DNA from: Gemmatales bacterium
GTDB taxonomy: Bacteria > Planctomycetota > Planctomycetia > Gemmatales > HRBIN36
Assembly (NCBI GenBank): GCA_041640595.1
Contig: JBEPZY010000003.1
Span: 244,773-308,772 of the forward strand
Reading direction: 5' to 3'
Length of the DNA stretch: 64,000 nucleotides
A model generated the notes under the pieces. It saw nothing but the letters and a program-made list of their open reading frames with translations, had not been told where the DNA came from and made no database searches. Made by a program: the position numbers and the translations under genes. Position 1 is the stretch's first letter. Each line of letters begins with the position of its first letter. Shown in pieces: positions 7,001 through 44,128 of the stretch.

Positions 7001-7484
7001 GAACACGGCAACCCATCTTTCCTTTCGTTAACGCAACGTGGAGGCGAACGACGGTCGGACTACGTCTGCCGGCGAACACGGTAACCCACCTTTCTTTTCG
7101 TCGCCGCAACGCCAAGCTGTGCCGCGATGCCTGCTTATTCGGTGGACTAAACAGTCACGTTGCCCGAGTTGGCCCGCCGTCACCGCAGCCGACAGCGTCA
7201 TCGGCTTCGCTGATTCTGGACTCCCCGCGTAATGTGGAACAGATGGGGCTAGTGGCATCCCTTGCAGGTGGGGTAATCCGCAGCAACGATGCGAATGTGA
7301 AGCTCGTCGTCGGGCTAATCCCGAATCTATAGCCGCTAACCGACACCCTCCTCGTCCGTAACGAAACGAATGTGAATCTCGTCGTCGGGCTAACGGCGTT
7401 GCCAGCAGGCGAGCTAATTCAATCCGGCAAGCGTCAGTGGTTCCGCTGTGACCAGCTAATGGCCGTTGCCTGCAGGCGACCTAA
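7001..7484. repeat. Three repeat-insert-repeat duplications: 7001-7038/7074-7111 (38 bp), 7283-7318/7358-7393 (36 bp), 7389-7417/7455-7484 (29-30 bp)
   Basis: Direct alignment by eye; unique inserts of 35, 39 and 37 bp. Confidence 0.8.
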
Positions 7485-21380: not shown

Positions 21381-22394
21381 ATTATCTAGGATGCTTAGTC
21401 ATCGAAGGACGCGGATGCTTAACCTTGATTTGCCGCAGTCCATGTGAGTATTAGACAAGATGCTCGGTCATGGTAGGAACCCATTTGCTCTTGTCTCTAA
21501 CCAGGACGGAATAGGCATTAGCTTAGGAGATGTCGCTTCCGGTAGGAACTAGCTGGCGCTTCAAACGCCAAACAGAGGACGGACTAGGACTTAGCACAGC
21601 AGGTCTTGCTTTCCCTATTCGTATCCTGACAGCCGGAACAAATTCACTTAGTCCCAGTTGACTATGTGTGGATTGACATCTGCAGGAGTCTTACAATCCT
21701 AACAGCCGGAACAAGTTCCCTCAGTTCCAGTTGGCACCCCGGCGATAAAGAAGATTAGGCCCAGCAGTGTGATTTCGCTGACGTACTGATGACATATTGT
21801 TCGCCCCAGCGGTAAAGAGGATTAGGCCGAGCAGTTTTTCTGTTTTGTAATACTTGACGACGGTTGTTAACCCAGCGGTGAAGAGGATTAGGCCCAGCAG
21901 CCCCGGCTTTAAACGTCCACCAAGTTCAACCTTAGAGTTGCCACCCTGGCGGCAAAGAAGACCAAACCCAGCACCGAGACGCTACACTGTCCGCCACAGT
22001 TTGCCGGCCCAGCGGGAAAAATTGAGCTTGGCAACCAGGCGCCACACTGTCGGCCACACTTGAGGCCGATATGCAGCGATTGCAAAGAAAAGCTGCACGG
22101 GACTGGCAACCAGGCTCCACACTGTCAGCCACACTTGAGTGCATAGGGGGAATGGAAGCTCAACCACTAAATGTCCGGCGGCTTAGTAGGTTTTTAATAA
22201 TGACGCAATAACTTAGCTGGTGGAAGCTCAACCATTAAATGTCCCGCGGCGGCCAGATGCTCGCTGATAACTGGTGCCAGCGCGGGAGTGGAGGCTCAAC
22301 CATGAAATCTCACGCGAGATTGCTGGTCGACATCCGAAAATGTGGCTTCAGGGCATAGGGGGAGCGGAGGCCGAACCATGAGATGGCTCTGCGG
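21381..22394. repeat. Compound stack of CRISPR-geometry mini-arrays with six different repeat families
   Basis: Families E (21381/21450/21517, weak), F (21503/21576), A (21623-21660/21696-21733), B (21738/21805/21871/21945), C (21971/22029/22104), D (22153/22221/22289/22365); periods mostly 66-76 bp; unique, often AT-richer inserts. Confidence 0.85.
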
Positions 22395-24574: not shown

Positions 24575-25408
24575 TCAATGGCGGGACTGGCCCTGTGGTT
24601 TCGTTGCGGATGGTTTTTGCAGAATAGGTGGTTTGCCAGCGAGGATGTCCTGCTCCCACTGGTCGAGCAGTGGCCAGGAGACCGCACAGGTGCCGAAATC
24701 GGCCATGTACTGGTAGCGTCGCAGGCGGTCTATAGTCCGCTGGATCATCGCGCGATCGTGTGGAAAGACCGGGCCGTGACTGGGCAGCAAATACTCGACG
24801 TCGGCATCGCGGATACGTTCCAGCGACCGAATGAAATCGGGGATATTCGAGCCGTGATGGGCATCAATCACGCCGACACAGCCATCGGCAAAAAGGTTGT
24901 CGCCACTGAAAAGCAAGCGATCGAGTTGCAGGGCGATCTGGCCCGGAGTGTGTCCGGGAGTATGCCAGACCTTCAAGCGAAGTTCGCCGACTTCGATTTC
25001 GTCGCCGTCCTGCAAACGGATGTCCACGCGGCAGGGGGGCATTTCCAGAGCGATTCCCTGGGCCTTGATCTGGGCGAAGGTCAGGATCGGGTCGCCGGTC
25101 TCCAGCGCTGGAACGCTCTCTGAATGGGCGGCCACGCGCGTCTTGAACAACGCGCTGGCGCGGGCCAGACCCTGGGCGTGATCGGCGTCGGCGTGGCTGG
25201 CGATGATCATTTTGCAAGCCGATAAGCTGTAATCCATCCGCAACAGCAGGTCGGCAATCTCTTCGACAGTGTCGGCGTAACCGATGTCAATGAGGATGTA
25301 CTCCGAGCCACCGTCAACCACATAGACGTTGGCACCCAGCCGACGCCCGGCCTGGTAATTGAGTTCGAGCACACGATAATCGGGGAAAAGATATTTTCGG
25401 CGCGTCAT
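24575..25408 (-). CDS. MBL-fold metallo-hydrolase
   Basis: LIDIG, SHADADH, HTPGHTPG, LFSGD, LLPSHG. Confidence 0.88.
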   Translation of the reverse strand: MTRRKYLFPDYRVLELNYQAGRRLGANVYVVDGGSEYILIDIGYADTVEEIADLLLRMDYSLSACKMIIASHADADHAQGLARASALFKTRVAAHSESVPALETGDPILTFAQIKAQGIALEMPPCRVDIRLQDGDEIEVGELRLKVWHTPGHTPGQIALQLDRLLFSGDNLFADGCVGVIDAHHGSNIPDFIRSLERIRDADVEYLLPSHGPVFPHDRAMIQRTIDRLRRYQYMADFGTCAVSWPLLDQWEQDILAGKPPILQKPSATKPQGQSRH

Positions 25409-25453
25409 TTTCAGGGACCAGTGGTCGGTCGATAGTGACCAGTTGCTCGTGAA

Positions 25454-26041
25454 TTATGGTGTGGTTGGCAAATAGAGTCGCTGCTGAGCAATATAGCACT
25501 CGACGGCCCGCGGTACCAGATAGCGAATGGAACGCCCCTGGCGAATCCGCTGGCGTATATCGGTGCTGGAGATTTCGATGAGCGGGGATTGCACCCAGCG
25601 CACGCGAAACTCCGGCGGCAACGATTCGGGCCTGGTGTAGCCCGGCCGAGCTGCCACCACCAGCGTCGCCATCTGGGCGATAGCAAAAGGTTCGTACCAG
25701 GTCGGAAATTCGCACAAACTGTCGGCCCCCAGCAGGAGGAACCATTCCGCTTCGGGGAATTGCTCGCGCAAGTGTCGCAGCGTCTGCACTGTGTAATTGG
25801 GCACCGGCAGCCGTGTTTCGAGATCGCTTACAACAAAAGCCTCGTGTCCACCTACCGCCAAGCGCAGCATTTCCAGCCGGTGCTCCACGGATGTCAGTGG
25901 CCGATTCAGTTTGTGCGGCGGGTGTGCCGCTGGCATAAACCACACCTGCTCCAGCTCCACCTGTTCGCGGCACTGCTCGGCCACGATGAGATGGCCCAGG
26001 TGCACCGGATCGAAGGTGCCACCGAAAATTCCGATACGCAT
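25454..26041 (-). CDS. nadD: Nicotinate-nucleotide adenylyltransferase
   Basis: IGIFGGTFDPVHLGH, PPHK, LLGADSL, ISSTDIR. Confidence 0.95.
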   Translation of the reverse strand: MRIGIFGGTFDPVHLGHLIVAEQCREQVELEQVWFMPAAHPPHKLNRPLTSVEHRLEMLRLAVGGHEAFVVSDLETRLPVPNYTVQTLRHLREQFPEAEWFLLLGADSLCEFPTWYEPFAIAQMATLVVAARPGYTRPESLPPEFRVRWVQSPLIEISSTDIRQRIRQGRSIRYLVPRAVECYIAQQRLYLPTTP

Positions 26042-26188
26042 TCCACTTCTCCCGCTCAGCCGGTCGCCCGCCATCCCTCCGCTGCAGGTTTTTCAGTTGC
26101 CCGCCCTCCAGCCACGCCACATCTTTAGCAACGCAACCCTTGTGTCCGGATTCTCTGCGATTGCACTCTCTTGGCCGCCACAGACGAG

Positions 26189-26848
26189 TTAGCCCTGCGG
26201 CGTCTGGGTTGACGCACCCGGCAGCCGGAACAGTTCCGCCACCGCACACGTGAAGCCGGGCAGCACATCCTCGCCGTCCAGCACTTCATTTTCCTCCAGC
26301 ACTCGCGGTTCACGGCCTGCCCGGTACACCGTCACATTCCGGCTCTCCCCGTCCACTACCCACACCATCGCTATGCCCGCCCGCAGATACTGCTGCACCT
26401 TCCGCATCACCATCCCCAGCCGATCCGATGGCGACAACACCTCCACCACCAAATCCGGTAACCGCTTCGGTGGGCCCGCAGCAAGCTCGCTCAAAGGCAC
26501 TGTTTCCCTGTAGTAGGCGACGTCCGCTCCTCGCACCACCGGCGGATCAAGTTGCAGAACCAGACCAACGTCATTGGAAATCACCCGCCCTTGTCCCCCT
26601 CGTTCCAAATACGCTAGCAGTGCGCGTATGACCAGGACACAAACTGCCCCATGCAGCTCACCAGGCAAAGCCATGACCACGAGCCTCCCTTCGTCCAGCT
26701 CCAGTTGCCTGTCCGCATACTCCGGCCGCTCGCATAACGCCAGAAATTCCTCCACCGTCAGCAGCTTCCCCGCATCGCTTCCGGTGCGACCATCCCCGGC
26801 CGCTCGCCGCTCTTCCGTCCGTTCTGCCGCCACCGTCCCTACGCTCAT
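26189..26848 (-). CDS. Uma2-family (DUF820) PD-(D/E)XK endonuclease-like protein, copy 5
   Basis: ELDEGRLVVM..H..VRGADVAYY..PDLVVEVLSPSD..KVQQYLRAGIAMVWVVD..LPGF; ATG overlaps the upstream TGA. Confidence 0.9.
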   Translation of the reverse strand: MSVGTVAAERTEERRAAGDGRTGSDAGKLLTVEEFLALCERPEYADRQLELDEGRLVVMALPGELHGAVCVLVIRALLAYLERGGQGRVISNDVGLVLQLDPPVVRGADVAYYRETVPLSELAAGPPKRLPDLVVEVLSPSDRLGMVMRKVQQYLRAGIAMVWVVDGESRNVTVYRAGREPRVLEENEVLDGEDVLPGFTCAVAELFRLPGASTQTPQG

Positions 26849-27534
26849 CGCTGTTCCCCCTTGGCGGTCTCGCTCACTGTGCTCGCCGCCGTCGTTCCCA
26901 TCACCGTTCCAGGAAGGCGGAATAACTCGCTTACGGCACACGTGAAGCCGGGCAGCACTTCTTCCCCGTCCAGCACCTCGTTTTCCTCGAGCACTCGCGG
27001 TTCACGACCTGCCCGGTACACCGTCACATTCCGGCTCTCCCCGTCCACTACCCACACCATCGCTATGCCCGCCCGCAGATACTGCTGCACCTTCCGCATC
27101 ACCATCCCCAACCGATCCGATGGCGACAACACCTCCACCACTAAATCCGGTAACCGCTTCGCCAATCCAGGCGAGATTTCCTCGAGCCGCACATTCTCCC
27201 GGTAATATGCCAAATCCGGGGCCCGCACCGTGTCCGGATCTCGACTCAGCAGCAAACCAGGATCGTTGCAGGCTACACGACCCACACCGGTTCGCCGGAT
27301 GTAGTCAGCCAGCAGAACTCCGATGTACCAGCATTGCGTTCCGTGAGCGTCTCCCGCTGGTGGCATGACCACGAGCCTCCCTTCGTCCAGCTCCAGTTGC
27401 GTGTCCGCATACTCCGGCCGCTCGCATAACGCCAGAAACTCCTCCACCGTCAGCAGCTTCCCCGCATCGCTGCGACCATCCCCGGCCGCTCGCCGCTCTT
27501 CCGCCCGTTCTGCCGCCACTGTCCCTACGCTCAT
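26845..27534 (-). CDS. Uma2-family endonuclease-like protein, copy 4
   Basis: Same motifs; ATGA overlap. Confidence 0.9.
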   Translation of the reverse strand: MSVGTVAAERAEERRAAGDGRSDAGKLLTVEEFLALCERPEYADTQLELDEGRLVVMPPAGDAHGTQCWYIGVLLADYIRRTGVGRVACNDPGLLLSRDPDTVRAPDLAYYRENVRLEEISPGLAKRLPDLVVEVLSPSDRLGMVMRKVQQYLRAGIAMVWVVDGESRNVTVYRAGREPRVLEENEVLDGEEVLPGFTCAVSELFRLPGTVMGTTAASTVSETAKGEQR

Positions 27535-28223
27535 CGCTGTTCCCCCTTGGCGGTCTCGCTCACTGTGCTCGCCGCGGTCGTTCCCATCACCGTTCCAGGA
27601 AGGCGGAATAATTCGCTTACGGCACACGTGAAGCCAGGCAGCACATCCTCGCCGTCCAGCACCTCGTTTTCCTCGAGCACTCGCGGTTCACGACCTGCCC
27701 GGTACACCGTCACATTCCGGCTCTCCCCGTCCACTACCCACACCATCGCTATGCCCGCCCGCAAATACTGCTGCACCTTCCGCATCACCATCCCCAACCG
27801 ATCCGATGGCGACAACACCTCTACCACCAGATCGGGCAGTTCTGTCGTTACCTCATCAGCTAACTCATTCAGGTGCAGCTTGTCGCAGTAGAATGCGAAA
27901 TCAGGACGACGAACCGCTGGCGGTTCGCCGCCCAGAAGAATGCCTGACTCAGCACTTCCGACTCCCTTGCCCATCCGCCGACTGTATTCGGCGAACAACG
28001 CCCCTATTGCCCAAACGATGCCCCCGTGAAGCGGCGATGGTGGTGGCATGACGACAAGCCTCCCTTCGTCCAGCTCCAGTTGCCTGTCCGCATACTCCGG
28101 CCGCTCGCATAACGCCAGAAACTCCTCCACCGTCAGCAGCTTCCCCGCATCGCTTCCGGTGCGACCGTCCCCGACTAGTCGCCGCTCTTCCGCCCGTTCT
28201 GCTGCCACTGTCCCTACGCTCAT
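27531..28223 (-). CDS. Uma2-family endonuclease-like protein, copy 3
   Basis: Same motifs; most divergent central segment. Confidence 0.9.
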   Translation of the reverse strand: MSVGTVAAERAEERRLVGDGRTGSDAGKLLTVEEFLALCERPEYADRQLELDEGRLVVMPPPSPLHGGIVWAIGALFAEYSRRMGKGVGSAESGILLGGEPPAVRRPDFAFYCDKLHLNELADEVTTELPDLVVEVLSPSDRLGMVMRKVQQYLRAGIAMVWVVDGESRNVTVYRAGREPRVLEENEVLDGEDVLPGFTCAVSELFRLPGTVMGTTAASTVSETAKGEQR

Positions 28224-28909
28224 CGCTGTTCCCCCTTCGTTGCCTCTCCCGCTACGCTCGCCGCCGTCGTTCCCATCACCGTTCCAGGGAGGCGGAATAA
28301 TTCGCTTACGGCACACGTGAAGCCAGGCAGCACATCCTCGCCGTCCAGCACCTCGTTTTCCTCGAGCACTCGCGGTTCACGACCTGCCCGGTACACCGTC
28401 ACATTCCGGCTCTCCCCGTCCACTACCCACACCATCGCTATGCCCGCCCGCAGATACTGCTGCACCTTCCGCATCACCATCCCCAGCCGATCCGATGGCG
28501 ACAACACCTCCACCACTAAATCCGGTAACCGCTTCGCCAATCCAGGCGAGATTTCCTCGAGCCGCACATTCTCCCGATAATATGCCAAATCCGGGGCCCG
28601 CACCGTGTCCGGATCTCGGCCCAGCAACAAGCCGGGGTCATTCGTGGCCAGTCTGCCCGTTTGCGTAGCTTCAATGTGCCTGGTCAATGCCCGAATCACC
28701 AACCAACACACTGTTCCATGTAGTTCGCCCGCTGGTGGCATGACCACTAGCCTCCCTTCGTCCAGCTCCAGTTGCCTGTCCGCGTACTCCGGCCGCTCGC
28801 ACAACGCCAGAAATTCCTCCACCGTCAGCAGCTTCCCCGCATCGCTGCGACCATCCCCGGCCGCTCGCCGCTCTTCCGTCCGTTCTGCCGCCACCGTCCC
28901 TACGCTCAT
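28220..28909 (-). CDS. Uma2-family endonuclease-like protein, copy 2
   Basis: Same motifs; ATGA overlap. Confidence 0.9.
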   Translation of the reverse strand: MSVGTVAAERTEERRAAGDGRSDAGKLLTVEEFLALCERPEYADRQLELDEGRLVVMPPAGELHGTVCWLVIRALTRHIEATQTGRLATNDPGLLLGRDPDTVRAPDLAYYRENVRLEEISPGLAKRLPDLVVEVLSPSDRLGMVMRKVQQYLRAGIAMVWVVDGESRNVTVYRAGREPRVLEENEVLDGEDVLPGFTCAVSELFRLPGTVMGTTAASVAGEATKGEQR

Positions 28910-29580
28910 CGCTGTTCCCCCTTCGTTGCCTCTCCCGCTACGCTCGCCGCCGTCGTTCCCATCACCGTTCCAGGAAGGCGGAATAATTCGCTTACGGCGC
29001 ACGTGAAGCCGGGCAGCACTTCTTCCCCGTCCAGCACCTCGTTCTCCTCCAGCACACGCGGTTCACGACCTGTGCGGTACACGGTCACATTCCGGCTCTC
29101 CCCGTCCACTACCCACACCATCGCTATGCCCGCCCGCAGATACTGCTGCACCTTCCGCATCACCATCCCCAACCGATCCGATGGCGACAACACCTCCACC
29201 ACCAAATCGGGCAACCGCTTCGCCAGGCCAGGTGAAATTTCCTCCAGCCGCACATTCTCGCGGTAATATGCCAAATCCGGGGCCCGCACCGTGTCCGGAT
29301 CCCGGCTCAGCAGCAAACCAGGATCGTTGCACAGCACGGCTCCCCCTGCCCGGCGAGCGTAGTCCATCAGCAAGGCCACGATCCACGCACACTGTCTACC
29401 GTGTAGTTCCCCCGCTGGTGGCATGACGATGAGCCTCCCTTCGTCCAGCTCCAGTTGCCTGTCCGCATACTCCGGCCGCTCGCACAACGCCAGAAACTCC
29501 TCGCAAGAAATCTGCCCGCTGGAAACAGGCGATGGTGTTCGCAAACCCGATTCACGTTCGCTGACCAGGATTGCACTCAT
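28906..29580 (-). CDS. Uma2-family endonuclease-like protein, copy 1
   Basis: Same motifs; unique N-terminus; GGGGAG RBS. Confidence 0.9.
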   Translation of the reverse strand: MSAILVSERESGLRTPSPVSSGQISCEEFLALCERPEYADRQLELDEGRLIVMPPAGELHGRQCAWIVALLMDYARRAGGAVLCNDPGLLLSRDPDTVRAPDLAYYRENVRLEEISPGLAKRLPDLVVEVLSPSDRLGMVMRKVQQYLRAGIAMVWVVDGESRNVTVYRTGREPRVLEENEVLDGEEVLPGFTCAVSELFRLPGTVMGTTAASVAGEATKGEQR

Positions 29581-40903: not shown

Positions 40904-42328
40904 TCAGGGTTGTGCGGGTGCGAAGACGTACAGCTCGGTAACTTTGGGTGGCTGGTTGTCGAGGAATTTGAGCAGCGGATTGATGTCAATGGGTTTGCTC
41001 AAGTCGCGGGCGCGGGTGAGTTCGTCGAGCGGCTTGATCATGAGCGGCAGGAGTTTCTGCACATAGGATTGTTTGGCGTAAGCGGGGTGGCTTTGCACTT
41101 CCAGAAGCCGGGCCCGGAGCAGAGCCGCGTAGAACTGCCACGGTTGGCGGCGTCCTTCGGTGTCGGCGTTGGCCTGGGTAATCAGCTCGGCGACAAACCG
41201 GCCGACCTCGTGGAAAGCGTAGTCGCTCTGGTAGGGCCCTTTCGCATCGGGCAGCAGTGCCAGCAATCCTGCCGCCGCTTCTACCTGTTCGGCGAGGGAA
41301 GGTTGTGGGCTGAATTTCGCGGCTGGGTCAGCTTTCATGACCTGGAGAAAAATTTCCGCGACTCGGCCGGTCTTGGGATTGGCCGGGTCGAGCAGGGGTC
41401 GGCGAAGGTGAGCCAGTGCGCGTAATCCCGCCCGACGGAACGACTGCCAGCCCGCCTGTTCTTCCGATGGCCAGGTTTTGATCAGGGCCGGATCGAGATG
41501 GTAGGCCCAGGTGAGCCAGCGTTCGATGAGGGTAGCGGCTCGGGTTACGATTTCCGGCGGCAAAATGATCCGCTTCGGATCGCGGTTGCTGGCCACGGCG
41601 TGAAACAGCTCACCAAAACCGCGGATCGCCCAGTAGCGCTCGGATTGGTGCGCTGCCGAAGCATCTATCGGATACTTTTCCAGCGGATACAAAAGGACAG
41701 GGTAGATCTCGCCGATCCCTCGTTCGGCAAACAGGTAGGCCATGCGCATCGCGTTGATGCGTACAATCGGTCGCGGATCCTGCAAAACCCGCAGCAAGGC
41801 CGGAACGAACGCTCTGGCCAGTTCGCTGGCGTACTGGCGAACGCGGCGAGTCTGTTCGGGCGGAATATCCTCGCTCAATTCCAGGGCGCGGGCAAACGGT
41901 AACACCGTTTTGGCAAGCTGATCCATGTGTTCGCGGAGGGCGTTTGGTGTCGTGTACATCGGATTTTCATGGGTAAGTCTGTAGGCGTAAAACCGTGCCA
42001 CCTGTTCGAGCAACTTGCGGCGCTCCTGCTCATCCATGCTGAACTCGACATCGCCACTTCGCAACCGCGCCAGGGGAATTCGGTGGGCAGGAAGCAACTT
42101 TCCCTCGTCGAGACGGAGCGATTCTGCGGTCAGTGCGATGCCGGGCGCGACCGGTTTGGCAGGTGCTTTGTCCCCCGCCTTCTGGGCTGCGGGATCCTCG
42201 GCCGGCTTAGCGGGGGCTGGTTTGTCGGTGGGCTTGTCTTTATCGGGCTTTTCCGGCGCGGATTTCTCCTGTGCCACCACCAGTGCCGCAACCACCATCA
42301 AAATAGCGCAGACTGATTTGTGCCGCAT
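40904..42328 (-). CDS. Secreted helical hypothetical protein
   Basis: Signal peptide, K/P/D-rich linker, HEAT-like helices; start uncertain. Confidence 0.65.
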   Translation of the reverse strand: MRHKSVCAILMVVAALVVAQEKSAPEKPDKDKPTDKPAPAKPAEDPAAQKAGDKAPAKPVAPGIALTAESLRLDEGKLLPAHRIPLARLRSGDVEFSMDEQERRKLLEQVARFYAYRLTHENPMYTTPNALREHMDQLAKTVLPFARALELSEDIPPEQTRRVRQYASELARAFVPALLRVLQDPRPIVRINAMRMAYLFAERGIGEIYPVLLYPLEKYPIDASAAHQSERYWAIRGFGELFHAVASNRDPKRIILPPEIVTRAATLIERWLTWAYHLDPALIKTWPSEEQAGWQSFRRAGLRALAHLRRPLLDPANPKTGRVAEIFLQVMKADPAAKFSPQPSLAEQVEAAAGLLALLPDAKGPYQSDYAFHEVGRFVAELITQANADTEGRRQPWQFYAALLRARLLEVQSHPAYAKQSYVQKLLPLMIKPLDELTRARDLSKPIDINPLLKFLDNQPPKVTELYVFAPAQP

Positions 42329-42536
42329 GAGGTGTCTCCCAAGGCGGATTGACTGGACTACCTGAAGCAGAGCCCGGCCCCCCAACTGAGATGCCTCCAC
42401 CATCAGGTTATCACCGCATCTCCACCGCGTCAAGCATCAGCGAAGCCGGAGACTTGCGACTGCGGTTCGATCTGACTGTCGGCCACTCACCTGCGAGAGA
42501 ATCGCTCTCTCGCAATGACGGCTGCCGTCGCAGTAC

Positions 42537-42873
42537 CACGGCGGGCTGACGCCCACCGCTCTTGGTCGTGCGTGCGTATGTGCAGCGTAAAAATCGTTTT
42601 TTCGCCGGCAGAGATGCGCGTTCCGCCACAAGAGCGGGGGGCGTTAGCCCCCCGTGGCGCCGATAAACGCGAATGCAACGGCAATCCGCACACACACCGT
42701 CGGCGGTCTGCCGACGAATAGCGGGCGTGTGTGCGGATGCGATTTTGCCGGCCCACGGCGGGCTGACGCCCGCCGCTCTTGTTCGGATGTGCGGATGTGC
42801 AGCGTAAAAATCGTTTTTTCGCCGGCAGAGATGCGCGTTCGACCGCAAGAGCGGGGGGCGTTAGCCCCCCGTG
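42537..42873. repeat. REP/REPIN cluster 1 (four alternating 26-bp hairpin REPs, ~217-bp unit duplicated)
   Basis: CACGGCGGGC-TGAC-GCCC(A/G)CCGCTCT at 42537 and 42754; inverted AGAGCGGGGGGC-GTTA-GCCCCCCGTG at 42631 and 42848. Confidence 0.85.
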
Positions 42874-43044
42874 GTGTTGCTCTACGCGATGGCAACCCTA
42901 AGGCGACCACAATGGCCTACTGATTTAGTAACGCGTTAGCCCCCCGTGGTGTTGCTCTACGCGATGGCAACGACGGGGTCTGCAAAGTTATCGTGGACCC
43001 CGACGGTCGTTAGCCCCCGTGGTGTCGCTCCACGCGATGGCAAC
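42859..43044. repeat. CRISPR-like mini-array: three 37-38 bp repeats, two unique spacers (37 and 36 bp); repeat derived from a half-REP plus flank
   Basis: CGTTAGCCCCCCGTGGTGTTGCTCTACGCGATGGCAAC at 42859-42896 and 42934-42971 (identical) and 43008-43044 (3 differences). Confidence 0.85.
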
Positions 43045-43156
43045 GGCGGTCGGCACACGTACTCTCGGCGGTCTTCCGAGCGTTCGCGCTCGGGCCGGAT
43101 AGTACTTACGGGCGATCGTAGCAACCGCGAGGGGGTTTGCGAACCGGAGCAGAGCG

Positions 43157-44128
43157 TTACTCGGCGGGGAAGAGCGGTGTACTCAGATACCGTTCGCCGA
43201 GGTCGGGGATGATGACGACGATGACCTTACCTGCATTTTCCGGCCGATGGGCTACCTGTAAGGCCGCCCAGGTCGCCGCACCGGCACTGATCCCGCACAG
43301 GATACCTTCTTCCCGTGCCAGCCGACGCGACATCTCGAAGGCATCCTCATCCTGGACGGTGATAACCTCATCAATGATGTTGAGATTGAGCACATCGGGA
43401 ATGAAACCGGCACCGATACCCTGAATGCGATGTCGGCCGGGCTTGATCGGCTCACCGCGTAGCCGCTGGCTAATGACCGGGCTGGCGGCCGGCTCGACGG
43501 CAATGCAGCGGAAGGTGGGTTTGCGTTTCTTGATTACCTCGCCCACGCCGGTGATGGTTCCGCCTGTGCCCACGCCGCTGACCAGGATGTCGGCAGCGCC
43601 GCCGGTGTCGTTCCAGATTTCTTCGGCAGTGGTTCGGCGATGGATTTCCGGGTTGGCGGGGTTCTTGAACTGCTGCGGCATGTAGGCGTTGGGGGTTTTG
43701 GCCAGGATTTCCTCGGCTTTGGCAACCGCCCCACGCATCCCCTGATCGCCGGGCGTCAGGATGATTTCCGCACCGAATGCTTTGAGCAACCGCCGACGCT
43801 CGATGCTCATCGTTTCCGGCATGGTGACGATGAGCTTGTAGCCTTTGGCAGCGCAGGTGAACGCCAGAGCAATTCCCGTGTTGCCGCTGGTCGGTTCGAC
43901 AATCACGCTCTCGCCGGGTTTGATTTTCCCCTCGCGTTCTGCGGCTTCGATCATGGCCACGCCGATTCGATCCTTCACCGACCATAGCGGGTTGAAATTC
44001 TCCAGTTTCGCCAGCACGGTCGCTTTGGCGTCGCCGACCACGCGGCGGAGTTTGACCAGTGGCGTGTGGCCGATGGTTTCGGTAATGCTTTCATACACGC
44101 GACCACGAAACGGCAATGGATATTTCAT
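43157..44128 (-). CDS. cysK: Cysteine synthase A
   Basis: [50 protein letters not shown]. Confidence 0.95.

Follow-up and report, generated by a model that had tools for sequence, protein, structure and literature searches.

A three-repeat mini-array beginning inside a REP hairpin: a probable scar of off-target CRISPR spacer integration in a Gemmatales bacterium

In a 64,000-nt stretch of the genome of a Gemmatales bacterium (contig JBEPZY010000003.1), a mini-array of three repeats (R1–R3) and two spacers (S1 and S2) lies in a non-coding cluster of hairpins resembling repetitive extragenic palindromic (REP) elements, with an unknown gene on one side and the 3′ end of cysK on the other. The whole stretch is called the window here, and feature coordinates are window positions. 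Sequence comparison points to the mini-array being a scar, left when the Cas1–Cas2 of one of the host CRISPR–Cas systems, designated system A, twice integrated a spacer off target, and we place the probability of this reading at about 0.85. That the REP served as a hot spot by mimicking a CRISPR repeat is a separate proposal, towards which we lean only slightly.

R1 (42859–42896) and R2 (42934–42971) are identical 38-mers, and R3 (43008–43044) is a 37-bp copy that lacks one C and shows two T/C changes relative to them. By the 38-bp boundaries of the original prediction, the spacers are 37 bp (S1) and 36 bp (S2) long, unique and regular in length. The repeat comprises the last stem bases of the REP, the GTTA loop and the right arm, followed by a 22-bp piece of linker that closes with GCAAC; the identity of R1 and R2 spans these 22 bp past the REP and then ends exactly at AAC. 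R1 closes a GC hairpin with a GTTA loop, for which an equally good fold occurred in 3/200 shuffles. In 11 hand-picked REP-anchored duplications the left edge is sharp between positions −2 and −1, with a period of 74–75 in every case; the copies agree at −1 in eight and at −2 in three, the three mismatches at −1 being two transitions and one transversion. Because agreement is found at −1 but rarely at −2, the duplication starts at G 42858, making R1 and R2 39 bp and S1 36 bp. Apart from this shift of one base, the predicted layout holds: two identical repeats, a degenerate third, unique spacers, and a REP left arm before the first copy only, so that R1 alone completes the hairpin. The same direct-repeat detector returned no match in a block-shuffled 668-kb contig, which excludes a chance origin. 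The features of the mini-array are as follows.

42846–42874, + strand: REP-like hairpin holding the duplication start (stem 42851–42859, loop GTTA 42860–42863, stem 42864–42872)
42858–42896, no strand: R1, target-site copy of 39 bp (38 bp from C 42859), by repeat comparison
42897–42932, no strand: S1, putatively younger insert of 36 bp (37 bp with a 38-bp repeat), single-copy in the genome and absent from the metagenome locus L029
42933–42971, no strand: R2, identical to R1 and without the REP left arm, by repeat comparison
42972–43007, no strand: S2, putatively older 36-bp insert that contains an internal hairpin, single-copy in the genome and present in the metagenome loci L029 and L030
43008–43044, no strand: R3, 37-bp copy with one C lost and ancestral bases at two positions, by comparison with the metagenome locus L031

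The inverted repeat predicted in S2 is present. As a functional signal its hairpin was rejected, since 31/246 canonical array-A spacers fold equally well or better.

The repeat derives from host sequence, as had been predicted, and the evidence is the existence of unduplicated copies. A sister module lying 217 bp upstream is built in the same way but is not duplicated, and it runs straight into the linker type that is found after R3. Further empty copies exist at C4:323790 (positions outside the window are given as contig or locus and coordinate) and at L031, each again followed by an R3-type linker. At its TCG and CAC, R3 agrees with the empty paralog L031; R1 and R2 thus carry two derived C>T changes, and R3 is not simply a degenerate copy. 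Judged by these differences, the first duplication is old, and the second left no differences between its copies. The surrounding cluster comprises the following.

42536–42564, − strand: REP-like hairpin that opens an inverted pair within the cluster, by sequence comparison
42629–42657, + strand: REP-like hairpin of the empty sister module, by sequence comparison
42641–42714, + strand: empty target paralog, consisting of REP loop, right arm and 22 bp ending in GCAAC (empty paralog 42641–42679; matches of 79% and 77%)
42753–42781, − strand: REP-like hairpin, by sequence comparison; a terminator-like match within it (42756–42775) is at chance level, with one found and 0.9 expected
43045–43110, + strand: ordinary REP-cluster linker, originally 3′ of the target, by repeat comparison

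Three metagenome loci match the repeat pattern. L030 is the two-spacer allele of the focal genome, L029 carries S2 only and L031 is the paralog already mentioned. Towards cysK, L029 shows 98% identity, and the module of 107 bp upstream in it is closest to the focal cluster. At L029:1–1180 (reverse strand), the cysK cluster is joined to a gene that sits at C2:146714 in the focal genome, and this junction is a rearrangement or a misjoin through the REP cluster. By its sequence, L029 shows that S1 is variable, through gain or loss. Depth was compared in metagenome contigs only, for four of 24 listed runs and with the top-matching run excluded as a possible source. The S1-unit depth was below that of the flanks (22.7 versus about 30, 5.5 versus 16–20, and 4.8 versus 23–25; for the fourth run it was not among the rows listed), and one joint, from 42853 to 43005, may represent either an empty allele or a paralog. 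Since depth in contigs does not give the share of cells, both observations are hints only. An empty ortholog was not securely found, the congeners being without the cluster or having another gene order at cysK. The proposed succession of two insertions with target-site duplication is supported by the empty paralogs, the one-spacer allele and the absence of any second copy of S1 or S2 in the genome; the REP copies without duplication and the allele with another spacer number that the original prediction had proposed to look for both exist.

The genome holds two adaptation modules, with two cas1 and two cas2 genes and a reverse transcriptase (RT) beside one pair. In system A (contig C1), the RT, cas2 and cas1 adjoin 247 copies of a 37-bp repeat, and the spacers measure 33–40 bp (modes 36–37). 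System B combines a type I-B system with cas4 and a type III-B Cmr module, and has 344 repeats of 30 bp on two contigs. The periods of the canonical arrays are 65–70 for the 30-bp repeat and 70–77 for the 37-bp repeat, that of system A being mostly 73–75. No cas1 or cas2 was found on the focal contig. With its duplication of 38–39 bp and inserts of 36–37 bp, the mini-array belongs with system A. Three further CRISPR-related loci were observed: a stand-alone cas6 beside an APE2256-family gene (C7:74723–75100), far from both cas loci and with similar cas6 genes in the relatives G001 and G002; a remnant mini-array at C3:328836, distant from cas genes, whose repeat is close to the canonical one of system B (26/30); and a small array (C20:1210–1580) on a contig of 4.7 kb, with a third type of 30-bp repeat.

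The same geometry recurs throughout the genome. Isolated direct repeats with periods of 40–130 were scanned for outside the canonical arrays, with N runs and coding repeats filtered; of 458 matches, 129 whole-REP tandem matches were removed and 329 kept. The kept periods fall at 64–69 in 146 cases and at 71–77 in 140, with 30 outside 63–78, and the lengths have modes of 30 and 37. Approximately 290 scars thus show period peaks at 66 and 73–75, which match the two canonical arrays. They occupy 282 loci, 16 of which hold more than one insert, and 264/299 lie outside predicted genes and 11/299 inside, in a genome that is 79% coding by a crude in-house gene caller. The motifs learned from the scars, T..CAA for system A and GG|GT....AAC for system B, were reached even from a shuffled seed and resemble the canonical leader–repeat junctions. 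Within 0–200 bp of REPs the scars showed no enrichment over non-coding DNA, in a set whose filter drops REP-containing matches. One local hot spot without a REP was seen at 21623–22330, where four different scars lie within 700 bp: long-period pairs at 21623 and 22029, and short-period arrays at 21737–21975 (three to four copies) and 22153–22320 (three copies). Other single, non-coding scars of period 71–75 are found in the window at 7001, 7285, 24342, 53993 and 62395.

Relatives were sampled as parts of genomes. In G001 and G002, for which only the A-type cas1 was found, there are ten long-period scars (71–78) and one short-period scar in 141 kb, and four long and no short scars (one probably a coding repeat) in 362 kb, respectively. 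G003, with both cas1 types, has four of each in 351 kb, its contigs having been chosen partly for REPs. No scar was found in 792 kb of four other genera (G004, G005, G006 and G017), and G009, in which no cas1 was found, gave one REP-related match in 174 kb. In these samples, the period class of the scars appears to follow the cas1 type found in the congeners. The loss of HU/IHF-family proteins as the cause of scarring was rejected because two such genes are present in the focal genome, as in the congeners; two of the scar-free other genera have three.

The REP itself is an extragenic GC hairpin with a GTNA loop, occurring in clusters, of which 748–1175 copies were counted under three definitions (862 full copies under the stem/loop definition). 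Its ends read CAAGAG and CCACGG; the terminal GTAG/CGTC tag is absent, CGTC/GTTAG occurring at the loop only, and no RAYT/Y1 transposase matching PF01797 or NF047646 was found in the 95%-complete assembly. Two of three congeners are without this REP altogether. Duplications that start at the REP loop and enclose unique inserts also occur at C2:165823, C3:358805 and C5:180127 and, more weakly, at C2:578700, so that the same REP base is used at four to five other loci or locus families in the genome. In G003, 4/36 REP contexts carry a loop-anchored duplication (three clear), two of them in neighbouring modules beside an empty third; in G009, none of 13 REPs does. Scar boundaries fall in a five-base REP-loop window in 6/496 cases versus 1.17 expected (p 0.0013; one detector, all non-coding DNA), in a window that was chosen after the focal site was known; when the focal event and one doubtful event are subtracted, four remain versus 1.17 (p about 0.03, calculated by hand). 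At the other 86 REP offsets there are six boundaries versus approximately 20 expected (by hand), and about 98% of all boundaries are not at a REP loop. On these counts, the REP would be a modest, position-specific warm spot in otherwise cold DNA.

A likely basis for this preference is the resemblance of the REP to the canonical repeat of system A (repeat A). Among 91 offsets on two strands, the best repeat-A match of the 862 REP modules is at offset −1 on the reverse strand (14.2/37, against a background of about 9), and five duplication-bearing modules exceed the average, scoring 15–19 of 37 (permutation p 0.005). On this strand, the TTGCAA end of the linker aligns with the 5′ end of the repeat, and the REP arm and loop align with its GGGG...AAC 3′ end. 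Matching both ends takes 39 bp at the focal site, and this would account for the long period. Since the best match to the CRISPR repeat lies at that very base on the opposite strand, the REP is better regarded as a repeat mimic than as a surrogate leader.

Off-target integration could then have proceeded in four steps. REP modules offer a ready stretch of 37–39 bp, from the base 5′ of the loop to GCAA(C), that resembles a CRISPR repeat at both ends on the opposite strand. Cas1–Cas2 would attack both ends and insert the 36-bp S2, and repair would duplicate the target. The two copies diverged by the three changes seen in the sequence, and a second attack, on the copy that completes the hairpin, would have added S1. 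The REP would act in this as a weak repeat mimic, possibly aided by hairpin extrusion, and not as a leader; Nunez et al. reportedly described, in 2015, a role for hairpin extrusion in integration. The product is probably non-functional, and recombination between REP clusters could spread such inserts around the genome.

Several points weigh against this reading, besides the retrospective choice of the loop window and the weaker excess that remains without the focal event. The focal duplication is 38–39 bp, in contrast to the 37-bp cognate repeat. The focal site matches repeat A at 14/37 positions forward and 15/37 in reverse, leaving its orientation ambiguous; its reverse-strand score is only the median among REPs, and the forward-strand mirror offset of −33 scores 13.9 without any events. 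Beyond approximately 107 bp upstream of the repeat, L029 carries a different gene and synteny ends, and its linker is almost equally close to both sister modules (93.5 versus 92.5%); owing to this limited synteny and ambiguity, L029 may be a deletion product rather than an ancestor. Three relatives have cas1 but no scars, so that Cas1 alone is insufficient. Finally, the protospacers that the original prediction had proposed to search for were not found: three exact scans of viral contigs gave no S1 or S2 protospacer, blastn against phages gave only partial matches with E values of 1–6, and no source was found in the host's own genome; nor was a protospacer-adjacent motif (PAM) obtained for either spacer.

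The other scars give some indication of where such inserts come from. Source matches scoring at least 27 were obtained for 8–9/291 scar inserts versus 1/291 reversed controls. One non-focal scar spacer equals the canonical spacer B185 at 30/31 bases, and others match a contig targeted by approximately 30 canonical spacers, a host gene or a 23S rRNA-like sequence. The last is matched by the inserts at C3:484615 and C3:554067 (33/34 and 31/35) and lies on C5; from its sequence we take it to be 23S rRNA. Three scar inserts match the targeted contig, C15 (9.6 kb), as do about 30 spacers of array B, the latter with a CCN PAM; the contig is probably a mobile element binned with the host, and one spacer of the remnant array at C3:328836 also matches it, with a CCG PAM. 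The array-B PAM is CCN in 27/30 cases, and PAMs of scar spacers are limited to about five cases in which the insert register is free or ambiguous. In array A (C1:359749–377934, beside the RT), 104/246 spacers overlap another spacer, the overlapping pairs being on the same strand in 87 cases and on opposite strands in three; the corresponding numbers for array B are 15 and six. This pattern suggests RNA-derived spacers from a small, variable target, and two scans of array-A spacers against viral sequences gave no targets.

Of the alternatives, the one that survives best is that of the original prediction, in which the REP cluster is a surrogate leader that recruits the integrase, so that spacers enter beside the REP with a polarity and a neo-array grows. 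The identity of R1 and R2 and the lack of S1 in L029 do place the younger insertion at the copy with the intact hairpin, and the focal forward strand agrees at ten positions with the final 14 bases of repeat A, which would set the REP on the leader side. Nevertheless, this is a single event that would fall on that side by chance in 50% of cases. The reverse orientation scores better at 5/6 REP-anchored sites; a match on this favoured strand means that the leader side faces away from the REP and that the younger spacer is trailer-side. The leaders of four system-A arrays share conserved motifs near −88 and −50 that are absent from the REP flank, other REP offsets are depleted, and the small share of boundaries at REP loops given above does not suit a recruiting element. 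Nor did the predicted CRISPR-like polarity emerge to a significant degree: over 13 scored three-copy scars (two mixed loci set aside), polarity is leader-side in seven and trailer-side in five, with one tie. We therefore consider a surrogate leader unlikely.

Still less probable is an origin in the dynamics of the REP cluster without Cas1, whether through loss of the left arm in a tandem module or through hairpin-tip cleavage and repair or RAYT-type capture, with the block as a fixed part of a larger repeat. Half-REPs are also found 88–96 bp behind REPs, with recurrent linkers, and one older REP-anchored 36-bp insert recurs in six modules on three contigs and another in two to three modules. 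The recurrence of a block with the same spacers at many REP clusters, named by the original prediction as evidence against itself, is therefore seen for these other inserts, which could be captured spacers later spread by cluster recombination, but not for S1 and S2, which are single-copy. R1 and R2 moreover share 22 bp past the REP and part exactly at AAC, the assembly yielded no Y1/RAYT gene, the same geometry occurs at about 280 loci that are nearly all off REP loops, and G009 has REPs, no cas1 that could be found and no loop-anchored duplication.

That the locus is, or once was, a working mini-CRISPR with a repeat family of its own, or the remnant of one, is very improbable: three repeats with canonical-length spacers, a genome with Cmr and type I-B effectors and cas6, and RNA runs that contain part of the wider stretch speak for it, but the repeat, a slice of a common host element, has no Rfam match in the window and only 14–15/37 identity to repeat A, its predicted fold lacks the canonical CCCC/GGGG stem and 3′ handle, no promoter-like site was found at the mini-array and the contig yielded no cas1 or cas2. 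The match to a bona fide CRISPR repeat family that would have spoken against the original prediction was thus not seen. As there is neither a canonical stem and handle nor a promoter-like site, function as CRISPR RNA appears unlikely, and so does an immune function of the mini-array.

Off-target integration by Cas1–Cas2 has precedents. The neo-CRISPR loci of E. coli (Nivala, Shipman & Church, 2018, as cited in bioRxiv 10.1101/148544 and PMC7054753) likewise combine a spacer-sized insert with a repeat-sized host duplication outside an array, at repeat-like sites; according to 10.1101/148544, they were obtained with a type I-E system under artificially up-regulated adaptation, and the evidence from other species is circumstantial and covers two species. 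Of the testable features of this class, the mini-array shows all except a protospacer, none having been found, with the resemblance of the target to the repeat being weak at the focal site taken alone; it belongs to no CRISPR repeat family. Unlike in E. coli, we are dealing with a wild lineage and approximately 290 fixed events from two integrases, one type I-B-like and the other RT-linked; hits are repeated, and one recurrent site lies in a multicopy REP. The Cas1–Cas2 of Pyrococcus furiosus integrates in vitro at repeat-like non-CRISPR sites (Grainy et al., 2019; PMC6698737), and these are one repeat length wide, independent of a leader and bordered by G/C with scattered shared bases; they are plasmid sites for a 30-bp repeat, whereas the focal case is chromosomal, in vivo and inherited. 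A type III-A Cas1–Cas2 has HU-dependent fidelity in vitro (PMC13769266), and the likeness is that a type III-type integrase of a thermophile is error-prone without a host architectural factor, although the focal genome holds two HU/IHF-family genes.

Isolated CRISPR arrays, array-like units far from cas genes, have also been attributed to off-target acquisition (Shmakov et al., 2020, as cited in PMC13142298). The focal repeat differs from these in its REP derivation and in its identity of only 14–15/37. Those arrays are said to resemble known CRISPR repeats. As for the host element, REP/BIME (bacterial interspersed mosaic element) clusters and REPtrons are known, with GTAG/CGTC terminal tags that define families (Di Nocera et al., 2013; PMC3733652), and the description there of hundreds of extragenic GC hairpins of 20–40 bp in clusters with conserved linkers fits the focal family. 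It differs in that the focal REP has no such terminal tag, no RAYT was found and some linkers are apparently CRISPR-type inserts. The literature searched yielded neither REP-anchored nor genome-wide natural scars, nor any description of REP linkers that are CRISPR-type inserts; the full texts and supplements of Nivala 2018 and Shmakov 2020, outside that search, could hold cases. What is new here, as judged from the sequences, would be the REP-anchored duplications at the same base at several loci and in a congener.

The flanking genes and two other repetitive regions of the window complete the description.

40904–42330, − strand: flanking open reading frame (ORF) of approximately 474 amino acids, with no Pfam or NCBIfam match
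43157–44128, − strand: cysK, cysteine synthase A, 3′ end toward the cluster (TIGR01139, 467.9 bits, cut-off 350.95)
25314–29580: five to six tandem units of approximately 687 bp, each with an ORF of 224–311 amino acids
56653–60345: ORF of 1230 amino acids with internal repeats of 126 and 273 bp

Off-target integration is documented for E. coli under over-expression and in experiments in vitro; the cited work leaves open whether it occurs in nature at a genome-shaping rate and whether it can seed new arrays. This genus appears to hold hundreds of fixed events, and the locus is an internal replicate, with the same base used independently in two species and with empty and filled copies side by side; the series provides ready substrates for asking what Cas1–Cas2 reads in a repeat. 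The finding ties the way REP clusters evolve to CRISPR adaptation, and does not show a new immune system. More tentatively, and with the odds leaning against the full picture, the multicopy REP may be a built-in CRISPR-repeat mimic in the genus, with hundreds of copies serving as decoys, at one base of which the RT-linked Cas1–Cas2 writes in at least two species, while recombination amplifies the spacers and feeds the linkers. If the RT supplies the inserts, the scars would naturally preserve a long-term record of RNA and would open a way for new arrays with new repeats to arise.
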